This document shows, piece by piece, positions 6,071 through 43,519 of a stretch of 64,000 bases of DNA. This DNA is from Eledone cirrhosa (lineage: Eukaryota): positions 227,292,001-227,356,000 of the forward strand of contig OZ024743.1 of assembly GCA_964016885.1 (NCBI GenBank), given 5' to 3'. A program made the position numbers and the translations under genes. Below the pieces are notes generated by a model. The model had not been told where the DNA came from. It worked only from the letters and a program-made list of their open reading frames with translations, and did no database searches. Numbering within the stretch: the stretch's first letter is position 1; each line of letters begins with the position of its first letter.

Positions 6071-6136
6071 TATTTCATTATATATATTTCAGGGATATCA
6101 TATTAACAATATGCTATGCCTTCCTCAGACAAAATA
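6071..6136 (-). ncRNA. Type I hammerhead ribozyme (inverted copy)
   Basis: Reverse complement of 6301-6366. Confidence 0.75.
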
Positions 6137-6300
6137 CAATATAAACAGTTTTATAGATAAATAGATTCGACATACCGTAACAACATCGACTTGCATTTGA
6201 AGAGGTTGATTTGGCAGTTGTAACATATATATATTTGTAACATATATATATTTTGTAACATGTATACAGTTGTAACATGTATATAGTTGTAACATATATA

Positions 6301-6366
6301 TATTTTGTCTGAGGAAGGCATAGCATATTGTTAATATGATATCCCTGAAATATATATAATGAAATA
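6301..6366 (+). ncRNA. Type I hammerhead ribozyme
   Basis: Stem I UAUUUUGU/AUGAAAUA (2 G.U); CUGAGGA; stem II AGGCAUAGCAUAUU/AAUAUGAUAUCCCU; GAAA; palindromic stem III UAUAUA; AUA cleavage triplet. Confidence 0.8.
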
Positions 6367-7311: not shown

Positions 7312-7387
<76 letters not shown>

Positions 7388-7509
7388 GGAGGTGAGTTTT
7401 ATTGTAGTACAATAAAGCAATGCAGATATCGGATAAGAAGCACTCTACAGTTTGTGGGACTGGAGTATGCATAATATAAGATCAAAAGATGGTTAAAGGA
7501 GTTCAATAT

Positions 7510-7578
7510 ATTTTATTATGCGCATTTCAAAAACAAACATCATCAAACAATAATATTTGTGTTTTCATCAGATAAAAC
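7510..7578 (-). ncRNA. Type I hammerhead ribozyme (inverted copy)
   Basis: Reverse complement of 7701-7769. Confidence 0.8.
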
Positions 7579-7700
7579 AGGAGAACATGATATGAAGGCT
7601 AAAAAAACACTTGTTGATAGTGCAGTTTTAAATCAACATATGTTGATTTAAAACTGCACTATCAACAAGTGTTTTTTTAGCCTTCATATCATGTTCTCCT

Positions 7701-7769
7701 GTTTTATCTGATGAAAACACAAATATTATTGTTTGATGATGTTTGTTTTTGAAATGCGCATAATAAAAT
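7701..7769 (+). ncRNA. Type I hammerhead ribozyme
   Basis: Stem I GUUUUAU/AUAAAAU; CUGAUGA; 16-position stem II with three G.U pairs and one mismatch; GAAA; palindromic stem III UGCGCA; AUA. Confidence 0.85.
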
Positions 7770-7800
7770 ATATTGAACTCCTTTAACCATCTTTTGATCT

Positions 7801-7872
<72 letters not shown>

Positions 7873-17296: not shown

Positions 17297-17494
17297 TGTA
17301 CTGTTGACCATGTTATTCTCCACTTTTTCAATTTTATTACGCCAAGATAAACTTACATAGGAATACAAGTGAAATCATAAACTCGTCATCTACGTAAACC
17401 TCTTGTTGAGTCAAGCAACGCCGTACGCTAGAACTATCCATAATAAGAGGTATTCACAACCTCTAATTGGATTACCTATAACGATATCTTGTTA

Positions 17495-17523
<29 letters not shown>

Positions 17524-17530
<7 letters not shown>

Positions 17531-19880
17531 CGACTTCACCTCTTCCCACCCTACGCACACTAAGCATTCTATTCCCTACTCCCAACTCCTCAGGATCCGC
17601 CGCCTCTGTAGCCGAGATGCTGACTTTGAGTCCCAGGCCCTTTCCCTAGTCATCCATTTCATCCACAGAGGTTACCCCCCTCTCTCGTCCATACCGCTCT
17701 CACCGCGCCCGTGCTGTCCACCGCTCCACCCCCCTCACCCCCACGCCACAGCACACCCACCCACCGTCTCCCCTTCCCTATCACCTACCACCCCTCCATC
17801 CTACTCCTCCACCGCACCATCCTCCGCCTCTTCCAACGCCTCCAGTCCGACCCCTCCCCCTCCCACATCTTCCAATCCCCACCACTTCCCTCCTTCAAAC
17901 GCGCACGCAATCTCCACACCTTCCTCGTCCGCAGCTCCCCAAAACGACGTCCCCCCCCGGTTCTCTTCCCTGTTCCAGGCCTCGTTGCAACACCTGTCAC
18001 CACATTACCAACACCACCACCTTCCATGGTCCCAACGGCCACTCTCTCTGTGTCCGGCACGCCTTCCGCTGCACCTCCTCCAACCTAATCTATGGACGTC
18101 GCCTGGCGGACCGTTTTACCGAACACCTCCGGTAGTTCCCCCATCGCTCGCGACTTTGGTGCCCCTGGACATTCCGCGCACCACCTCACAGTCTGTGGCC
18201 TACTCCAATGCCACGGAACACCCGCCACCCTCCTCAGGGTCGAACAACGCACCATCTTCACCCTACAGACCCACACTCCCCCCGACCTGAACTCCCCACC
18301 CCTATTCCTTTAGCCTTCACCCCCCCCCCCCCACACACACACATATCCCCACTAACACCGCTAACACACCCCTCATTTTCACCGCCCACCCCACAACTAA
18401 CAATACTAACACCCCCACCCCACACCCGACCACCCTTCCTCAACTAACAAAACTAACATCCCTCCTTTCTTCTCCCCCTCCCCTTATCACGCACACACCA
18501 ACCGGTACATATATACACGCACTCACACTAGCCACACACCCTACTACCACCACTAACCCTCACACCCACACATCCACTCCCACCACTCCACGACTAATAC
18601 CACTAACACCCCCGCCGACCCCACGCACACGAACACACACACCCACTTACACCACCCATTCTACACACCCTACCACCCCTGACCCCCACTAACACCCGCA
18701 TTCAACCCTTTCCCCACCACCAGTATACTAACACCCACTAACACCCCCTTCACCACACACACACTCATCCAAACACGCACACACACACCAGTACACTACA
18801 TACCCTCCATCGGCCCCCACACCTTTCTCTCGCCCTCCCATCCCCGCTCCCCCCACACCCCTTCTCACACACACACACATACGCATCCCACCAACACCTC
18901 TACTAATACACCCCCCCTCAACATTCCACATTTCACACCTACCCATCCTCTCCCCTGTCCACCGCACCTCCGCACACACTGACACACCGACTTTCTCCAC
19001 TTGCCATTCCCCCCGTCTGCTGCAATGCCCTGACCCTCTGACCACCTCTCTACACACACAGACACACAACCCTCCTCCTGCCTTGACCCTCTGACCACTT
19101 CCTGTTGCGCGTGCACCCCACATCTCCCCTATTCCGACCAACCCAACCACGGATTACACACATTGGACATCGCTCCCACGAATCAACTCCATCACAAGGA
19201 GATTACCCGGCATCCCACCACATCCTCTACGGAACTACCTTAGGAACTCACCCACGGACATACACTAAAAAAGATTTTTTTCCCACATGCCACCTACATC
19301 CACAATACGTATAAACACCACACACACGTGCGTACCACCACATATTTACACACTCAGCCTCCGGAATCCTCTCCTCCCCTCCCCCACCCCTCTGACCCCT
19401 CCCCATCCATGCACGCACACACACACCGACCTACACCCCACCCCACACACACCTTTTCCTGAACATGCAACCCCGTTCTTCCCCCAACTCTCACATTCAC
19501 ATACACACACACACACACGTACACCTACACACACACACCACCTCCCCGCTCGGACACCCCGCCTCCCTCTCCCCACTCCACCCGCCACCATCCCTACACG
19601 CCACACAACCTTCCACCACTTGTTTTACTTCAGGTTTATTTTTATTTTTATTATGCTTTTATATTTATTTTCATTTGTACCGTTTCCTCTCATCCCCTTT
19701 TTTCTAAATGTCTCTTCCCCACTCCCCGACACACCCTTGGAACTCTCTTCCCACACACTTTTCGCCTGAAGAAGGGCCCCTAAACGTCGTTTTCCACCAC
19801 CAGCCCACTCTCAAGAGCGTGAAACTAATAAACCTTTGTTCGTACTGCCTCTCTGTTTTGTTCCCGTTCAATTTTTCACT
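17524..19880 (+). mobile_element. 5'-truncated Neptune-like Penelope element inserted in (TA)n: RT C-terminus, Cys linker, partly deleted GIY-YIG, ~1.5-kb C/A-rich 3' region
   Basis: YLDFTSSHPTHTKHSIPYSQLLRIRRLCS..RGYP; RLPFPITYHP; FKRARNLHTFLVRS; PCSRPRCNTCH; GRRLADRFTEHL; GHSAHHLTVCGL..EQRTIFTLQTHTPPDLN; (TA)n on both sides; AATAAA near 3' end. Confidence 0.9.
19766..19789 (+). ncRNA. Decayed minimal hammerhead core at the 3' end of the Neptune-like element
   Basis: CUGAAGA-AGGGCCCC-UAAA-CG-UC; GAAA mutated, stem I not evident; position typical of PLE terminal repeats. Confidence 0.4.
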
Positions 19881-29391: not shown

Positions 29392-30092
29392 GTATACCAA
29401 GCATGTTTTCAGATGCTCTCTCTCAATTATACCTACCTACATTATTGTTTTATCTCCAAGAATGTCATTAGATACTCCAGCGACATCTATTTGATGGCAA
29501 ATTGAATTATGCAACATGTACGGGCAATGAATGATATGTTAATAGCGACATTTCTATCAGGTATTGCCGTGTTTGGTTACTGGCTCTAGGATATCGCATG
29601 TTCGTACGTTCCATCATTAAATTGTATACTTATGCATAATATATCGGGGTTATGCTAATCTAAAATACAGATTTAGCCAATATTGGTTACACAGCAGTAA
29701 TATGATCTGATGTTTCTGTATTCTATAACAATGCTATATTTCGCGGTGGCTGTTTTCCCCTTTTTGTGTGTAGAGAAAAAGAGGGGGCGAGTTAGTTCTG
29801 GTGCTTCTACTAAATTGCTTTATCGTTTTTTTTTTCTGAGAGAGTGTTACAGTGTTAAAATCTGCCCTTCTCATCCAGTATGCATTTTACAGTGTATGCT
29901 ACATTTCTGAGCTCCAAAACTCCTTAAAAGCTTTTGACTATTCAAATGCAAGAGGGGACCATACGGTAGTTATTCAAACACACACCACACAAAACTACAT
30001 GGAAACACTTTGAGCAAATATATATTATTTGCACATATTCTAATGTCTGTTTATATATATATATTTATGTAATAAACAACATAAGGCAATTA

Positions 30093-30153
30093 TTTCATTT
30101 ACCAGTGGTTTCTTGAAAGCAAACAAATTTTGCTTTCAATCATCACAATGAAA
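30093..30153 (-). ncRNA. Hammerhead copy with core mutation (GUGAUGA)
   Basis: Reverse complement of 30266-30326 except C3 to G. Confidence 0.7.
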
Positions 30154-30265
30154 AATTCCTGGTGTATTTATTGACATTGGATTAAAATTTATTTATTGAC
30201 ATTGGATTAATATTTATTAATTGACATTGGATAAAAATCCAATGTCAATAAATACACCAGGATTT

Positions 30266-30326
30266 TTTCATTCTGATGATTGAAAGCAAAATTTGTTTGC
30301 TTTCAAGAAACCACTGGTAAATGAAA
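30266..30326 (+). ncRNA. Type I hammerhead ribozyme, canonical
   Basis: Stem I UUUCAUU/AAUGAAA; CUGAUGA; perfect 11-bp stem II UUGAAAGCAAA/UUUGCUUUCAA; GAAA; CCACUGG; GUA. Confidence 0.9.
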
Positions 30327-30419
30327 TAATTGCCTTATGTTGTTTATTACATAACTATTAAGCTCTGTAACCTACATACACTCTTTTTTCCTGGACCTTT
30401 CCAACGGAATTACTTCACC

Positions 30420-30510
<91 letters not shown>

Positions 30511-30725
30511 GTTAAAAGTGTACATCTACATATGTATACGGAAATATTAGTATGCATATAAATACACACATGTATACATATGTACATGTACTGAGTTTTT
30601 CACTGGACACTTTACTGTGAGTGTCCAGCTAGTCTGTATGTAACCAAACAGACAAACCGGGTTTTAGAGTCATACGGGTTTTCAAGGAAACACATTTCCT
30701 CTATTCTCCAGAGAGCCAGACAGGA

Positions 30726-30768
30726 ATATTGGACTAGTTTCGATGTTATTACATTTCATCAGCAATAT
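30726..30768 (-). ncRNA. Minimal type I hammerhead ribozyme (inverted copy, first stem II base G to A)
   Basis: Reverse complement of 31240-31282 with one substitution. Confidence 0.85.
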
Positions 30769-31239
30769 ATACCCATCTTCCGGCTTCTCTAGAGAATCGT
30801 AAAAGCACATATCGTTATATGCTTTTTCTATGAAAATTAGTAGTGGGCAGACTAATTTGCATAGAACGTGAGTCATTGTACGCACCGGTTCAGCGGAAAC
30901 GATAAAAACAAATAACGAAACGAAATTAAATTTCGTTTCGCTTCTAACTCAGTTTTGTATGACTGACGCTTAAACAATTAAGTTAAAAGTGTACATCTAC
31001 ATATGTATACGGAAATATTAGTTTAAGCGTCAGTTTAAGCGTCAGTCATACAAAAGTGAGTTAGAAGCGAAACGAAATTTAATTTCGTTTCGTTATTTGT
31101 TTTTATCGTTTCCGCTGAACCGGTGCGTACAATGACTCACGTTCTATGCAAATTAGTCTGCCCACTACTAATTTTCATAGAAAAAGCATATAACGATATG
31201 TGCTTTTACGATTCTCTAGAGAAGCCGGAAGATGGGTAT

Positions 31240-31282
31240 ATATTGCTGATGAGATGTAATAACATCGAAACTAGTCCAATAT
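31240..31282 (+). ncRNA. Minimal type I hammerhead ribozyme, canonical
   Basis: AUAUUG-CUGAUGA-GAUGU/AAUA/ACAUC-GAAA-CUAG-UC-CAAUAU; predicted cleavage after 31276 (GUC); stem I extended by AGAUGGG/CCUGUCU and UCUCUAGAGA/UCUCUGGAGA. Confidence 0.95.
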
Positions 31283-31569
31283 TCCTGTCTGGCTCTCTGG
31301 AGAATAGAGGAAATGTGTTTCCTTGAAAACCCGTATGACTCTAAAACCCGGTTTGTCTGTTTGGTAACATACAGACTAGCTGGACACTCACAGTAAAGTG
31401 TCCAGTGAAAAACTCAGTACATGTACATATGTATACATGTGTGTATTTATATGCATACTAATATTTCCGTATACATATGTAGATGTACACTTTAACTTAA
31501 TTGTTTAAGCGTCAGTCATACAAAAGTGAGTTAGAAGCGAAACGAAATTTTATTTCGTTTCGTTATTTG

Positions 31570-31625
<56 letters not shown>

Positions 31626-34705: not shown

Positions 34706-37700
34706 ATGACCTCACTCAGAATAGGCAGCATAAATGCGCGTGGCTTGGGGTCGTCATGGAAGCAGAGCCACCTACTCAACGACCTCAAGTCACTAAACAT
34801 AGATGTAGTTGCGATCAGCGAGACCAGAATCTCCGAAGCACGGGCCTTCGCACCGGTCTTCGGCGACTACGATGTGTACGCATCTCCCAGCCGTCCTGTA
34901 TCGGGGGAGGGGGAGTTGCTGTGCTTTTTCGGAGAGGTTGGGTCTCACCATACGGGCCATCTTCCTGGACCCAGAAGGTAAGTTGGTGTTGCTGAACGTG
35001 ACCAGCGGAGACGGGCAAGCTTTCAGGCTAGGAGGGTGCAAGAGCCTCACCAACCTGCTCAGGCGTTTTGAACTCTCTGACAGGTACCGATTGGATTTCC
35101 CGAATGTGCCATTGTAGACTTGGACAAATCGCATAGGGTCATCCAGATCATATCTAGATAGAGTATTTTGTAGGGAAATAGATAGGTCTAGCATAGGCTG
35201 GCCACAATTCAAGATAGTCCTCTACACGGACCACAAGTTCGTGACCTGTGTGCTTGACTTAGATAGGCTTCATAGACGAGGACCCGGCTACTGGAAGCTA
35301 AACGCGTCCTTACCAGCGCGCAAGGCCTACAGAGACCGGATTAGCGAACTTGTTAAGCGGGCATTGACGGGGGCCACCGTCAACAACAAGTGGTGGTTTG
35401 CTCTGAAAAGAGCGATTAGAATAGAGTCCATTAGGTTTAGTAAGGTTTTAGCAATAGAGAAAAATAGAGCAGAGGGAGAACTAGTTAGAAAATTAGACGA
35501 GGCGCTTAACAAAGTCATCGCGACCGACGTACTTGCGGCGAAATTGGCCCTTGACCAATTCTTCAATTCAAAGCACGAAGGATGCGTTGTCAGAGCTAGG
35601 GTGCGTGCTCTCAGACACGAGGGGACGAAAGCCGTTCAATGGGCCCGAGTGGCGGTGGCGCGTCGTGCCAACAAAACCACGATCCGGTCTTTGGTGGACC
35701 ACGACGGGCGCATGCTACACGAACCCGGGCAAATGTGTGAAGCTTTTCAGCGACACTTCGCACAGCTGTTCGGGGGCAGCGGCGGGCCGGGTAGAGGGAT
35801 GGACTTTAGTGTCTACCTTGACGGACTGCCGCAGCTCTCGGCCACTGAGGCGGAGTTTTGCGAAAAGCCGATAACAGCCGCTGAAGTAAGGGAGGCAATG
35901 ACTGGCTGCACAAGGGGTAAATCGCCTGGTTTGGATGGTCTGCCCTATGAACTTTACGTACAGATTCCAGACTTGTTCAGAGGCTTCTTGGCAGACGTCT
36001 ACTGCAACTTGCAACAGAACGGGAGAATTCCCAGCTCTGTGAGCCGTGGAGCTGTGGCGCTGCTGAGAAAGGATCCGAACAAGGGGGATAACATAGATAA
36101 TTTCAGGCCCATAACTCTGCTAAACACAGAGTTCAAGATTCTGGCCAAGGTGCTAGCAAAGATGTTGGCGCTTGTCGTTGGTGGTCTGGTGGGAGAGGCG
36201 CAGACATGCGCCATTCCCGACAGATCAATTCACGACAACCTCCACCTCCTGCGATAAATCGTAGAGAGGGTAGCTAGGCAACCTGGCACGGGTGGGTCCT
36301 TGATCAATTTAGATCAGTTGAAAGCTTTCGATAGGGTCGACCATCGTTACCTAGCGGCAGTCCTGAGTGCGGTTGATTTTGGGCCCATCTTCAGAGGCTG
36401 GATCGCTGCCATGCCCAGCGACATCTGCTCTGTGGTGAGAGTGAACGGTCACCATTCGGAACCGTTCAACATCATGCGCTCGGTCCGCCAAGGATCTCCC
36501 CTCTCGTCCCTCTTGTACGTATTGACTCTCGAGCCATTTCTGCACAACTGGAGACGTTGAGGGGGGTCCCGCGCGAACTAGGATGCGGAAGATCCGTGTC
36601 AGCATATGCGGATGTTGTCACCGTAGTGGAGTCGAACGCCAAACACATCGAGGCGTTCGGCACTACACTAAGAGAATACGAAGCGGTGACAGGAGCAATG
36701 ATCAACCAGGAAAAGTCAGTGGGCCTGCAGCTCGGCACCTGCAGAAGCAGGTCATACCGTCCAACAGTGTCGTCCGGCGCTGGACGGACGGACCGGTTAA
36801 ATTGCTAGGGGTCTGGTTCAGTCCGGACCTCTAGACGGACAAAAACTGGGACGAGGTGACGAGCAGGGTGGCTTCTCTCACCCGGAAATTGGCGGAGAAG
36901 TAGCTATCCCTGAAAGGTCGAGCGGAGGTGGCTAACGCGTACATCGCGTCCGTCATCTACTACCGCCTGACCGTCGTACCTTGTCCTAAGCCCCGCCTGA
37001 CTGCGCTGGAGCGTTTGCTACGTGGAGGGCTGGGCATGCCGTGGCTGATGATGCGCAGACACGCGCTCAAGCTACGACATCTCCACCTCTTCCTCGACGG
37101 TGATCAGGTGTGGCGCCGTTTGCTAGACACTTTTTTCCCCAGCTCGTCTCCTTGACGGAGTTGCAGTCCTGGGTCAAGCGAAGACCGAGAGGGAGCGCTT
37201 GGAGACTGGAATGTCTTCAGGCGCTCACAGCCCTCGACCAATCGGGCAATGTGATCGGTGGAAACTCCACCTTGGCGTTCTATAGGGGATTAGTGGAGGG
37301 TAAGAGCGACAACGTACTTGGAGAAACTCTAGGCGTCGACGAAAATCAACTAGCCAATCTCTTCGGAAGGACTTTCGGGCCGGGGCCTATGGACAACTTC
37401 CAGAAATCCCTGGCCTGGCAGTGCTACTGGGGTGCTTTGCCAGTTCGGTGTAAACTCTACAGGCATGGAGGTGCCGTCAGCCGGGCATGTCCGAGATGCG
37501 CACAGGGCGACGAAACCGTCCTGCACGCACTCGTCCTGTGTCCGAGCATTGCTGACTTGTGGGTTTATGTCGAACACCTGCTGTCACGTGTAGGACGGAT
37601 CCAGCTATCAGCTGAGTCCATCGTGAGGATTGCCCCGCCCTCTTCCTGTAGCCGGGAAGGGCAGGCAGTTTTTATCTGTCTGGTGGCCATGGCGAAAGAG

Positions 37701-37904
37701 ATAGTATGGTGGACACGTTTGAAATGGCTGAAGACGAGCACTTACCTCCTCGGTGATGCCCTGATTAACTTTTTCAAATTTCATTTGAAAAGGAAAATCA
37801 GGGTAGAGAATGAAGTGCTCTCTTCCCAGCATTTTGTTGAAAGATGGGTGAGAGAAGCAAGTATGGCCCGAATGAATGGGCCTTCTCTGAGTATGTGTCT
37901 GTAA
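34706..37904 (+). pseudogene. Tx1 copy A ORF2 (APE endonuclease, reverse transcriptase, Cys motif), disrupted
   Basis: MTSLRIGSINARGL, AISET, GPGYWKLN, KSPGLDGLP, FRPITLLNTEFKILAK, LDQLKAFDRVDH, VRQGSPLS, YADV, GGLGMP, CPRCAQGDETVLHALVLC; stops, frameshifts, deletion in EN near 35030. Confidence 0.93.
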
Positions 37905-38393
37905 ATTAAAGGTGGAGAACTGGGAGAGGGCACTTGCCCTGGTGGTCAGGGTCACTGTGGTCTTTTAATGGGCTTTCTCCACAAATGTCCCTCGGAAGTC
38001 TCCCCCCTATTGTGGAATTTTTCTTTGTTATTTTATTACATCCTCTGTTTTTTACACGCAGAAATGCCCATTTGTACCGTCCTGTATTGTCCTGTACTGT
38101 CCTTAATGTCTACTTTATGTAAACCCTTGTGGTTAATAAAGAAAACATTATTATTATTATTATTATTGTTATTAATATTATTATTATTGTTCTAAGCGGA
38201 CGTATTTTGCTCGCTCACAGTAAGTCGCTTTATTTGCCTGTTAAAATTATTTGTTGTTAAATTTTTCTTGTTCTGTAAGGGATATAAGCCCTTAGACTTT
38301 GCCCCGTGAAGGGGAAAGTAAAATATTTGGGCCTTTTGGCCCAAATATTTGAACTTTTTTTTACATGTTAAAAAATTTACGAAGAAAAAAAAA

Positions 38394-40334
38394 ATGGCTG
38401 AGCCACGCCCCCCAGCGATATGTCGGCTGTCGTGCGACAACGACGTAGAAGTTGAGAGGAGCGCTACAGCGAAATTAACACAAATTGATAACACAACCAC
38501 GACCACAAACAAGGTAAACAAAGACACCAATGATACCAATAAGAACACTAATTTTTAATAAAATGACAGTAACAGCTACAACGAAAATACAGATAACAAA
38601 AAAAAAAATAACAAATACAACAACAATATCAACACCACTAACATGAAAACAAATAGCGACAACACCAACAGCAACAATACCAACTGCACCGAGAACAACG
38701 GTGGCAACAAAGACAACAATGATAACAGCGACAGTGCTAACAACAACACCAACAAGAACAACGACAACAAAACCCCCAACGAAAACAAGAACACTTTCGC
38801 TGCGGCAGCAGCAAAAAAGAGGCCATGCTTCAACATGGACCTCTCAAACAAAGATAAAAAGTTGGCCCAGGCATGGAAGCTCATCCAGCAAGAGCAAACT
38901 TGGGCCAACTTAACTGTCCCGGTTGAAGCTATTGAGGCAGTGGAGCGAAAACGGTGCATTATACATGCATCTCAGCACAAACCAAAAGATCAGCTTTAAT
39001 CCCACAAGATGTCGAAGTCGCGCTGAGGTGCATCAGAGAAGACACCCAGTACATAGAGAGGGGCAGACAGTACGGCACCATTTCGGTGTTGTTCAAGTCA
39101 GAAGCCCTCGCTATGAAACACGCTATAACTCCTTGCAAAACCAGCAAGGTCATAATGGAAAAAGAACGGCCCGTCTCCGCATTCCCAGAATCACACCAGG
39201 ACTTGACATGTGCTGGCTTCTGAGATGTGTGATTGTGGTGGGGACTGATACAGTCCCTATAGAAGTGACCAGAACGGCCAGAGAGGACTGGTCCGGGATT
39301 GACCTGGAGATCCTTCTCCAGATCAGGCCCGAGAATTTGAAGACAATCCCTGACCACATCCGCCTTCAGAATGGGACGGTCATTCACATTGTGACCGAAG
39401 ACAAAAGGCCGCAGTGTTTTGTTTGTGGGGAAAAAACCCATTTGCGAGCCTTCTGCCCTCAACTGCTGAAAGAGGCAAGGGGTCGAAAAGCTTCACTGCA
39501 GCCGACGCCGGGGCGAAGACCACAACCAACACCAGCACCGGCAAAACCACCAACAACATTGACCACCCAGGGGGGAAACGAGGAAAGCTGTCAACCCCCC
39601 CCCCCCCCCCCCCCCCCCTAAAAAAATACACACACCAATAAAACCATAAACATACATACAGACACACTTACAGACACAGAACCCTCATCTACCAGTAGTG
39701 AAAATGAGGGAAATCCCAAATCCCCCAAAATACAAAAAAGGAGACACAAAAAGAAAAAAAAACTCAACAAAGCACAAAAGCACCCACAATAAGAAACGCA
39801 GACACCACCCACGCAAACATCACTCCAATAACACCAACATCAACACGACCATCACCATCACCAGAATCCCCCAAACGCAAACAACCGAAACAGACGCAAG
39901 AACAAATATACACACAAACATCTGAAACCACAGACGCCGCACTCACAACAAACACAGATACAACCAAAACAACACCACCAAAACCATCACCACCACAGCC
40001 ACGCAAACAAATAAAATCACACCAACAATACATACAAAACTTCGTGCTCGTCAGGATGGCCAACAAGGAACTGATAGCCCTCGTAGCACGAAGTGAAAAT
40101 ATACAAAAAGAGCGTGAAATTTTTAAATCGAGCACATTTCGCGAGCCGGAAGATTTGGTTCTGGTGCGAATGTCGCTCGACATATTCAAAGAAATACGAG
40201 ACAGCTTTCCTCGGAACGTGAGAATCCCGAACGTAAAACCCACTTCAGGACTTTTAAAGGAGTTCCCAAAAGAAACCCCACTAACTATGGAGGTCGAACA
40301 ACCCGACCTTCACAAGAGCTCGGAAGGTAAGTAA
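38394..40334 (+). pseudogene. Tx1 copy B ORF1, frameshifted
   Basis: Asn/Thr-rich N-terminus, TFAAAAAK, YIERGRQYGTISVLF, KRPQCFVCGEKTHLRAFCPQ knuckle. Confidence 0.8.
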
Positions 40335-40365
40335 ACCTTCCTCTCTCTCTGTTTAACCTGCCAAC

Positions 40366-43300
40366 ATGGCCGTATTAAGAGTAGGATGTTTAAATGTTCG
40401 AGGCCTGGGATCGTCCTGGAAGCAGGGTCACCTGCTCAACGACCTCAGGTTTATAGAAATGGATGTAATTGCAGTCAGCGAGACCAGGATTTCCGACACG
40501 CGCGCACTAGCCCCCATTTTCGACGACTATCAGATCTTTGCATCTGTTAGCCGGCCGGGAATGGGAGGCGGGGTGGGAGTGCTGTTTAGGAAAGGCCTGG
40601 ATCTCGAGGTAAGGTCGATCTTCCGGTACCCGGACGGGAAGTTGGTGGTCCTGGACGTGAACAATAATGAAGGTGGTGCCTTTAGATTGGTGGCAGTCTA
40701 TGCTCCTACTGGGGCAGGACGGCCGGACTTCTTTAGACGCCTGGAAGCCTTTCTGGGTACGTCTCGCCCTTTACTGTTAGCGGGAGACTGGGACGGCATC
40801 TTAGACGCACGCTGGGACTGTGTCGGAGTATCCGATAGGAGCGGGGGGTGCAAAAGCCTCAAGAACCTGATCAGCCAGTTCCAAATGTCTGACAGGTACC
40901 GACTAGATTTCCCTAATGCGCCAGTGTGGACCTGGGCTAACCGCATAGGGTCATCTAGATCGTATATAGACAGGATATTCATTAGGAAAATAGACAGAAA
41001 TAGTTTAAGCTGTCCACGTTTTGAAACATTCGCCTATTCAGATCACAAGTATGTGATCTGTATGGTCGACATAGATAAGACACGCAGCTGATGTGCTAGC
41101 GGCGAGAATGGCATTAGACCATTTCTTCAATGCGAAACACGAAGGTTGCATTGTCAGAGCTAAGGCCCGTGCTCTGAGAAACGAGGGAACCAAAGCTGTT
41201 CGATGGGCCCGCGTGGCAGAGGCGCAGCGTGGTAATAAAACCACGATTCGGTCTTTGACGGACCGAGACGGGCACGAGCTGAGCGATTCCAAGAGGATAT
41301 GTGAGGCCTTTCGCCAACATTTTGCTCGGTTGTTCGGGGGAAGTGGCGGGTCAGAGATGGTGGCGGACTTCAGTCCCTACCTCGATGGCTTACTGCAACT
41401 CTCGACGGCTGACGCTGGGCGCTGCGAAAGGCCAATTACTTCAGCCGAGATTCAGGATGCCCTAGTCGGCTGCATGAGGCGCAAGTCACGAGCTTTACGT
41501 AAATATGCCAGACTTGTTATCCAATCTCCTCGAAGCCCTCTTCAGCAACTGGCAGCAAAACGGGAATATTCCCAGTTCTGTGAGCCGGGGCGTAGTGACG
41601 CTGATAAGGAAAGACGAGAACAAGAGGGACACATTAGACAATTTCAGGCCCATAACTCTGCTCAACACAGAGTTTAAGATTTTGGCCAGGATGTTAGCGA
41701 AGAGGTTGGCGCTTGTCGTCGGGAATTTGGTTGGGGAGGCGCAAACTTGCGCAATCCCAACCAGGTCCATACACGACAACCTCCACCTAATGCGATACAT
41801 CATGGAAAGGGTAGGGTGTAAACCTGGCTTCGGTGGGGCTCTGAACAATTTAGATCAATTGAAAGCATTCGATGGGGTCGACCATCGGTACCTGGAGGCT
41901 GTCCTCAAGGCGGCTGGCTTCGGCCCCGTCTTCAGAAGATGGATAGCTGCAATGCACAGCGGCACCTGCTCGATGGTCAAAATTAGTGGCCACCTCTCGG
42001 AACTGTTTCAGGTCTCCCGATAGGTCCGTCAAGGGTGCCCTCTCTCCTCCCTTCTGTACGTATTGACTCTCGAGCCTTTACTGCGGAAGCTGGAGCTGTT
42101 GCAGGGCATCCCGCTCGAACCGGGACGCGGAAAGGCTGTGTCGGCTTATGCGGACGACATCACCGTGATGGTGTCGGACACCTCAGAAATCGAGGTGGTC
42201 GGCAACTTATTGGAGGAATATGAAAGGTTGACGGGAGCAAAACTTAACCCAGAAAAGTCAGTGGGCTTGCAACTCGCCACCTGGAGAGGAAAGTCCATGC
42301 CGTCCAACAGCGTCGTTAGGCGCTGGACGGACGGACCGGTAAAGTTGCTAGGGGTTTGGTTCGGGCCAGACCTCCAGGTGGATAAGAATTGGGACGAGGT
42401 GACGGGCAGGGTAGTCAGTCTCACCCAGAAATGGGCTGGGTGAAGCTATCACTGAAAGGTCGGGTGGAGGTGGCGAACGCGTACATCGCGTCCGTCATCT
42501 ACTACCGTCTGACTTTCGTCCCTTGCCCCCGTTCGCGCCTCGCCATCTTGGAGTAGCTCCTCTTCAAATTCTTCTGGAGAGGTCAGATTCCGCTGGTGAG
42601 GCAGTCCATCTGCTGCCAGCACCCTCTACGTGGGGGGCTGGACATGCCGTGGCTAATGATGCGCAGGCACGCGCTGAGGCTGCGGCATCTCCAGATATTC
42701 TGCCTAAACGGTGAACAGGTGTGGTCGCCGTTTGTCAGACGGGCCTTTCCGCAGCTCGTTTCTTTGACTGAGTTGCAGTCCTGGGTCAAGAAGAGACCGA
42801 GACTGGGTGACTGGCATCTGGAATGTTGTCAGGCACTCACTGCCCTCTACCAGGCGGGCAATGCGGTCAGTGGAACTTCCACTCTCGTGTTCTATAGAGG
42901 ATTAGTGATGGGCAAGTGCGACGACGCACTCGGAGAGGCTCTGGGAGTCAACGAAGTCGAACTAACCAGTCTGTACCGGAGGACTTTCCAGCCGGGGACG
43001 ATGGATAATTTCCAAAAATCCCTCGCTTGGCAGTGCTACGGGGGAGGGGCACTGCCGGTTCGAGATAAACTCTACAAGCACGGAAGTGCTGTCAGACGGA
43101 CCTGCCCGAGATGCGCGCAGAGCGACAAAACCGTTCTGCACGCACTCGTCCGGTGTCCGTGCATTACTGACTTGTGGAGTTATTTTGAACAGCTGTTGTC
43201 GCGTGTAGAACGGATCCGGCTATCGGCCGAGTCCATAGTGAATATTGATCCTCCGCCTTCTTTTGGCCAGGAAGGGCAGGCAATTTTCCTCTGTCTGGTG

Positions 43301-43519
43301 GCAGTAGCGAAAGAGGTTGTATGGTGAACGAGGTTGAAAGGACTGAAGACAGACACTTTTCTCTTCGGCCAATCCCTCATCAACTTTTTCAAGTTTCACT
43401 TGGAAAGGAAGGTGAGGGTGGAGAGAGAAGTGTTGCCCCCCAGTACATTTGCTGGAAGGTGGGTGAATGTGGCGAGAATGGCCCGTGTGAGTGGGCCTAC
43501 TCTGGTCATGCGGCCGTAG
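40366..43519 (+). pseudogene. Tx1 copy B ORF2 (EN-RT), disrupted
   Basis: CLNVRGL, AVSET, VAVYAP, AGDWD, SYIDRI, YSDH; FRPITLLNTEFK; SAYADDIT; CPRCAQSDKTVLHALVRC; deletions near 41088 and 41490. Confidence 0.93.

Follow-up and report, generated by a model that had tools for sequence, protein, structure and literature searches.

In the accessible parts of PMC7229834 and 10.64898/2026.07.22.740005, metazoan non-LTR retrozymes are non-coding tandem repeats with a GC content below 45% and one type I hammerhead ribozyme per unit. They occur in thousands of copies, their circular form is strongly self-paired, and they co-occur with Penelope-like elements (PLEs). In coral, mussel, and axolotl, retrozyme RNA builds up in circular form, and a PLE has been proposed to reverse transcribe it in a rolling manner (PMC7229834; PMC7761336). 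That PLEs mobilize animal retrozymes has been proposed because the two co-occur, share ribozymes, and are related through the PLE terminal repeats (pLTRs), with the mechanism called unresolved (10.64898/2026.07.22.740005; PMC7229834; PMC7761336). On the basis of distribution and a pLTR phylogeny, the first of these sources argues that retrozymes are non-autonomous PLE derivatives, leaving the mechanism open, and it reports cleavage for 1 of 9 Xenopus retrozyme dimers (10.64898/2026.07.22.740005).

PLE insertions themselves contain partial tandems and an inverted 5'-truncated copy, and their tail is usually present at one end (10.1101/2021.04.23.441226; PMC3846280). In the text available from these sources, the origin of the tandem and inverted structures is called undefined (10.1101/2021.04.23.441226), and self-priming by fold-back has been raised as an idea (PMC3846280). 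The protein of the anole element Poseidon PAc cuts and extends both strands and is modeled as a dimer, and the tail of this element lies between two adjacent internal start sites of reverse transcription (PMC11167929).

Here we describe an insertion from the cephalopod Eledone cirrhosa, found in a 64,000-nt stretch of contig OZ024743.1 (the window). Those retrozyme features that can be read from DNA recur: the unit is tandem, a few hundred nucleotides long, low in GC, and non-coding, it carries one canonical type I hammerhead, its circular fold is strongly self-paired, and its family is dispersed, high in copy number, and accompanied by PLEs. No pLTR homologue of the unit was found. At 470 nt, the unit exceeds the 170 to 400 nt given in PMC7229834 and lies within the 51- to 972-bp range of 10.64898/2026.07.22.740005. 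Two-armed, head-to-head, one-tailed insertions, which form the majority here, are not described in the accessible parts of either source.

The insertion also resembles the EN+ PLEs of the Hydra clade, as far as the available text of 10.1101/2021.04.23.441226 goes, in its (TA)n target, 5' truncation, partial tandems, hammerhead, inverted 5'-truncated copy, and tail at one end. Unlike those elements, it has no ORF for reverse transcriptase and endonuclease, and its tail measures 74 nt rather than the typical 30 to 40 bp. With Poseidon PAc it shares an AT-rich target, two adjacent putative start sites, extension of both strands, and read-through of the hammerhead, but PAc in vitro used the same start site on both strands (PMC11167929), whereas the two ends differ in 41 of 43 insertions here. 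Start site 2 of our unit ends in TAT, so that 2 to 3 nt could pair with the target. The non-autonomous Chlamys-N PLEs are likewise non-coding and PLE-moved and enter microsatellites, but they are green-algal, target (C)n, and belong to an N-terminal-endonuclease clade that, in the parts of PMC9977147 available, is mostly without hammerheads. Our reading, to which we assign a probability of roughly 80%, is that the window holds a young, non-autonomous, non-coding non-LTR retrozyme insertion moved in trans by a PLE reverse transcriptase/GIY-YIG endonuclease.

RESULTS

Anatomy of the insertion in the window

The element at 30505-31576 consists of two head-to-head arms of one 470-nt non-coding unit between (TA)n tracts (Table 1). 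An earlier note, made from the window's sequence, had described two opposed copies of 470 and 471 nt inside (TA)n with about four differences, each arm running past one unit across its end-to-start junction. This description holds with all of its coordinates: exactly 4 differences separate the arms (3 substitutions and 1 indel), and the extra sequence amounts to 74 nt on the plus arm and 47 nt on the minus arm. The unit start is duplicated over 12 nt at the center of the insertion (31020-31046). Read as a circle, the unit has a longest stop-free stretch of 88 codons, and the ORF for reverse transcriptase plus GIY-YIG endonuclease that marks an autonomous PLE is absent from it. The 13-bp hairpin between the two start sites is a candidate protein-binding site.

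Table 1. Features of the retrozyme insertion, in window positions.
Feature	Position	Strand	Remarks
(TA)n target, left part	30420..30505	.	
Left arm	30505..31022	-	full 471-nt unit (30505-30975) plus 47 nt of the previous unit (30976-31022)
Left-arm hammerhead	30726..30768	-	G-to-A change in basal helix II pair
Head-to-head junction	31021..31032	+	12-nt duplication of unit start; 2 bases shared with left arm
Right arm, full 470-nt unit	31033..31502	+	36% GC
13-bp hairpin	31066..31094	+	between both start sites; related hairpin in subfamilies B, C, and D
Conserved hairpin	31143..31182	+	96% of alignment cells paired; changes one-sided only
Type I hammerhead	31240..31282	+	predicted cut after 31276
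74-nt PLE-type "tail"	31503..31576	+	start of next unit
(TA)n target, right part	31574..31625	.	

Several other repeats were seen in the window. Immediately to the left (30061-30420) is a further inverted pair with a long-helix-II hammerhead (30265-30326) and three 25-bp repeats at its center; its right extension of about 70 nt enters the (TA)n that holds the retrozyme, and the same family flanks locus L058. A third inverted pair, at 6071-6366, has 17-bp repeats at its center and a hammerhead-like motif whose helix III is the palindrome UAUAUA. Broken LINE-like frames, with endonuclease and reverse transcriptase motifs recognized by eye, extend over 35118-43327, and a PLE fragment lies near 17373-18290.

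The hammerhead and the fold of the unit

The right-arm hammerhead is composed of a 6-bp helix I with an outer helix, CUGAUGA, a 5-bp helix II, GAAA, and GUC, and its helix III is the palindrome CUAG. The earlier note had called it a minimal type I hammerhead. Type I, the GUC, and the palindromic CUAG are correct; by the definitions in the available parts of PMC4209133 and PMC7229834, the predicted ribozyme is the canonical form with a weak helix III and not the "minimal" one. In this helix it resembles the axolotl ribozymes HHR_Amex1/2, which, in the text available, cleave best as dimers. The Rfam model HH9 matched the right-arm hammerhead with 32.9 bits (E value of 9.9e-6, under the gathering score of 52) and the minus-arm hammerhead with 26.4 bits; the G-to-A change in the latter probably weakens it. 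No other ribozyme type matched in the Rfam search at an E value of 1 or below, and the Rfam microRNA matches, all under their cut-offs, were dismissed as hairpin or microsatellite artefacts.

Folded as a circle, the unit reaches -160.2 kcal/mol, compared with -94.5 +/- 4.8 kcal/mol for 60 shuffled sequences (z = -13.8). The four hairpins singled out in the earlier note are present both in the sequence and in this fold. The fold is branched. The opposite strand gave a z of -7.3, and the 71-nt hammerhead region by itself folded no better than its shuffles (z = -1.3).

Pairing across subfamilies A to D was assessed in an alignment of 9 sequences. In the hammerhead and one neighboring hairpin, 94% of alignment cells pair, compared with 37 to 48% when the partners are shifted. 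Within these sequences, 3 pairs of helix I and 3 of helix II have changed on both sides, and the core is nearly invariant. Such covariation, from few related sequences, supports a conserved hammerhead and is not expressed as a probability. The core is intact in 77 of 84 subfamily A units and 108 of 110 subfamily B units. Among recent shared variants, those that would break a predicted pair are only weakly depleted (27/101 versus 91/241; P = 0.06), and there was no effect in B.

These properties bear on whether the unit might be an endogenized viroid-like RNA that replicates from RNA to RNA and is occasionally reverse transcribed. Viroids of the hammerhead type carry ribozymes in both polarities. 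The viroid-sized unit, its strong circular fold, its hammerhead, and a fast turnover of haplotypes fit that idea, but a hammerhead scan of the reverse complement found no ribozyme, the fold is branched, and the hammerhead copies in the genome, which exceed 23,000 and include both young and older subfamilies, require no RNA replication. We consider a viroid-like origin highly improbable and have dropped the label "viroid-like" that had been offered earlier.

A large family of dispersed insertions

A search of the 3.0-Gb genome with the unit returned 168 matches from the best 38 of 807 candidate places scored, and 36 loci of this subfamily (A) were taken for analysis. Subfamily B is about 87% identical to the unit; 40 of its 737 candidates were scored, and 29 loci were analyzed. 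The skeleton of the unit is also shared by subfamily C and by subfamily D, an older group with 4,014 candidates whose copies are 92 to 94% alike. As loci were picked by best score, the sample is biased toward young copies that hold a full unit. Exact pattern counts over the genome gave 4,068 hammerheads of the A-type motif and 23,335 of the superfamily; reversed-pattern controls gave 0. Tandem arrays range from 1 to 30 units. The element in the window is thus a young member of a mobile family that is non-coding, carries a ribozyme, and is very abundant. The earlier suggestion of a retrozyme family is borne out: young copies are numerous and dispersed, tandem multimers occur, (TA)n flanks the insertions, and the template exceeds one unit.

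Some loci depart from the usual form. At L222-L223 (G000:C1:5.74 Mb), a 30-unit arm with an apparent duplication of a 7-unit block lies inside an otherwise ordinary head-to-head insertion; its unit appears intermediate between A and B, and the array looks like a satellite being born. Subfamily C units with internal (TA)n, the length of which varies among units, occur at L147:7080-8001 and L172. At L039:2144-4878, an A-type and a B-type insertion are joined tail-to-tail over a palindromic hairpin. An unrelated 459-bp tandem repeat with a CUGAAGA...GAAA motif lies between (TA)n tracts at L139:6010-6919 and is possibly another retrozyme family. The unit is also partly present in 6 sequencing runs of unstated type, none of them listed as RNA, which has no bearing on its expression; by word match, runs labeled as three other organisms (X4-X6) contain 0.21 to 0.36 of its words.

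Insertions follow a near-strict one-tail rule

Insertion anatomy was counted at 66 loci of subfamilies A and B with 114 arms. The counts leave out a segmentally duplicated second copy in L053, a spurious 24-nt piece from L098, an incomplete arm at L066, and 25 nt at each junction end; the variant tables leave out arms below 100 nt and, for A, the B-type insertion of L039. The 3' ends of 110 of the 114 arms fall at two fixed sites 74 nt apart, site 1 (n = 58) being the end of the unit and site 2 (n = 52) lying 74 nt into the next unit, and 100 of these 110 ends run into TA-rich DNA. Within (TA)n, target-site duplications do not stand out from the repeat. The 5' ends vary and fall anywhere in the unit. 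The freely permuted end points predicted in the earlier note are not supported: variation is confined to the 5' ends, and the fixed 3' ends are the PLE signature, which the note had not given as the mechanism. In the window, the left arm would start at site 1 without a tail (30505), and the end of the tail (31576) would be site 2.

Two head-to-head arms are present at 47 of the 66 loci, and one arm within the analyzed stretch at the other 19. Among 48 head-to-head junctions, 41 combine site 1 with site 2, 2 combine site 1 with site 1, and none combines site 2 with site 2; 4 involve another end, and 1 could not be resolved. One site per end is therefore used in 41 of 43 classifiable insertions (binomial P = 1e-10). 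The same orientation was seen, by eye, in a position-ordered hammerhead list, where all 14 mixed-strand clusters among 100 listed matches are head-to-head, and the anatomy recurs in subfamilies B, C, and D. At the center, the arms mostly meet over overlaps of a few bases or short fillers, and none of the 47 junctions listed is common to two loci. By eye, the longer arm of the 41 mixed-site insertions is the tailed one in 25, the tail-less one in 15, and neither in 1. That either arm may be longer speaks against a model in which one fixed arm is copied by fold-back.

Errors are common at near-perfect palindromes within microsatellites, and 5 of the 47 junctions are symmetric fold-backs, as an assembly artefact or a local fold-back duplication of DNA would produce. 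Against this origin for the inversion, the two arms in the window differ at their 4 sites and in their end points, and the same rule-bound anatomy is found at all 47 two-armed loci with differing junctions, and in subfamilies B, C, and D. The likelihood of such an artefact is negligible, and we take the inversion to be genuine.

Two fixed 3' ends, an optional tail at one end, an inverted 5'-truncated second arm, and a (TA)n or otherwise AT-rich target together constitute the signature of PLE insertion. Fixed 3' ends, tail, inversion, and hammerhead are also all features of pLTRs, and Xenopus retrozymes are related to pLTRs in the accessible parts of 10.64898/2026.07.22.740005. The unit might accordingly be a mere terminal repeat of an ORF-bearing PLE, seen as truncated end copies. 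Wherever an arm extends upstream past one unit, however, it continues into the same unit again, for up to 30 units, and PLE protein searches of the analyzed loci found no common ORF upstream. We regard this explanation as very improbable, and the case named in the earlier note as fatal to a retrozyme, a unit that is always the terminal repeat of a Penelope element, is largely refuted. The unit may have descended from a pLTR in the more distant past.

The template is longer than one unit

Opposite arms of one insertion differ by 0.72 per 100 nt in subfamily A, compared with 2.90 between loci, and by 0.29 versus 1.28 in subfamily B; the two arms are about as alike as units within one arm. This roughly fourfold greater similarity within an insertion than between loci indicates that a single RNA, or a single source, feeds both ends. 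Of 108 arms, 99 cross the ribozyme cut site, and 4 have 5' ends within 5 nt of it (2.5 expected). A cut site that is crossed, with no pile-up of 5' ends, indicates that the template is not the cleaved linear monomer and is instead a circle or an uncleaved multimer. Arms longer than one unit number 49 of 62 in subfamily A and 39 of 52 in B. There was no clear signal of A-to-I editing of the template (A>G 14 versus T>C 7 in A; 4 versus 5 in B).

Rare shared variants (n = 64) are informative about the two remaining templates. In 40 cases the variant is in every unit of its insertion, in 12 it is confined to some units of one arm, and in 2 it is register specific. The 40 all-unit and 2 register-specific variants are as predicted by a bottleneck of one unit, the monomer; the 12 confined to part of one arm count against it. 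On balance we favor, with moderate confidence, an RNA circle as the template, released by the hammerhead, ligated by the host, and copied in repeated rounds.

The same PLE-driven insertion could also start from an uncleaved linear multimer transcribed from long arrays, which unequal exchange in DNA would renew, circles being absent or a by-product. The 30-unit array and one of about 14 units have variants that repeat in multi-unit blocks, which shows expansion at the DNA level and means that long arrays offer linear multimeric templates. In addition, unprocessed RNA is the main in vitro substrate of the anole PLE in the available text of PMC11167929. Arrays with a period of 2 had been candidates for copies of dimer circles; this interpretation was downgraded, since those of L037 and L088 can be DNA duplications, and the period-2 patterns of L088 are missing from its other arm. 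The variant counts nevertheless run against a linear multimer, as does the absence of a shared center junction, which indicates that short insertions of the ordinary kind do not serve as linear templates by read-through. Compensatory changes have, moreover, preserved the hammerhead, and other retrozymes accumulate as circles (PMC7229834, accessible parts). We find the linear multimer rather unlikely, and the circle remains our preferred template.

Candidate helper elements

A search with the Pfam GIY-YIG profile gave 10,596 candidates in the genome. A Hydra-clade PLE stands out, with 59,409 candidates for its endonuclease and at least 150 copies at 98 to 100% protein identity among the listed matches; these near-identical copies mark the family as active. 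In its representative (L215:3880-7572, G000:C7), a 3.69-kb tandem unit contains an 821-codon frame, and this frame has both defining marks of the Hydra clade, the DKT motif and the CxCX5C linker (10.1101/2021.04.23.441226, available text). The family carries a hammerhead, targets (TA)n, and forms head-to-head insertions with a tail of about 87 nt at one end. Several other PLE families are present, and other families likewise use (TA)n.

The window contains a small head-to-head insertion of the 3' end of this active PLE (7383-7804), 96 to 99% identical to L215, with a hammerhead in each arm, (TA)n on both sides, and the tail of about 87 nt on the left only.

At locus L057, a tail-less Hydra arm is joined head-to-head to a tailed retrozyme arm. 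The Hydra arm, a 3' piece of the PLE with an intact 440-codon frame, ends in (TA)n and matches the active copy at 98 to 99% identity. Comparison of the unit with the Hydra family and with the 50 GIY-YIG loci examined gave no significant sequence similarity, and the helper is therefore not identified by homology. We are highly confident that the helper is a PLE, and the chance that it belongs to the Hydra clade is about even.

Other apparent joins were judged individually. L070, whose neighbor is about 30% identical to the active Hydra element, and L091 were rejected as co-insertions, as in neither is the tail status complementary to that of the retrozyme arm; Hydra-like DNA is common in the genome, and both look like chance neighbors. 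L059, where roughly 65 nt of other DNA intervene at the junction, is ambiguous, and so is L062, in which an endonuclease fragment of another Hydra-like family is fused 5' of the arm over a near-match.

A further PLE family (L140, L141, L144, L150, and L151) has a terminal repeat with a small hammerhead and a palindromic GUAC helix III, and its copies end, by eye, at two positions about 40 nt apart. A PLE whose hammerhead resembles that of the unit in its palindromic helix III, and whose tail measures about 40 nt by eye, was rejected as a partner, as its matches to the unit are at chance level (E value of 0.7).

DISCUSSION

Our results place the element within a known kind rather than a new class; what we did not find in the literature is evidence at the level of individual insertions. 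In full-text searches, which covered main texts and few subscription papers and took in neither supplements nor Repbase, we found no description of head-to-head, one-tailed retrozyme insertions and no cephalopod retrozyme. The main text of an Octopus vulgaris repeat annotation (PMC13282606) contains neither "hammerhead" nor "retrozyme".

A mechanism can be proposed for these insertions. A PLE protein, probably as a dimer, would cut both strands of a (TA)n target, and the two DNA ends would prime reverse transcription at different sites, one end using site 1 and the other site 2, both on the same RNA or on RNAs from one source. Each cDNA could then pass a full unit, straight through the ribozyme cut site, and the two cDNA ends would be joined at the center, mostly over a few shared bases. 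The complete version, in which a PLE dimer and one RNA circle act by two-site priming of a (TA)n break, the helper is of the Hydra clade, and L057 is a co-insertion, is tentative; we would sooner expect one of its parts to fail than all of them to hold. If true, it would give direct evidence of the way in which animal retrozymes are mobilized.

Across thousands of young copies, an ORF-less RNA of 470 nt bears the complete insertion signature of a PLE; the one-tail rule is nearly strict, and the arms of an insertion share a haplotype. With a short substrate, two start sites mapped on it, and a candidate enzyme from an active family of this genome, both mechanistic questions can be addressed in vitro. 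The value of this family lies in its insertion rules, a record of how PLE enzymes use one RNA to extend the two ends of broken DNA. If the reading with an RNA circle and a Hydra-clade helper is true, it would explain inverted, one-tailed PLE insertions in general.
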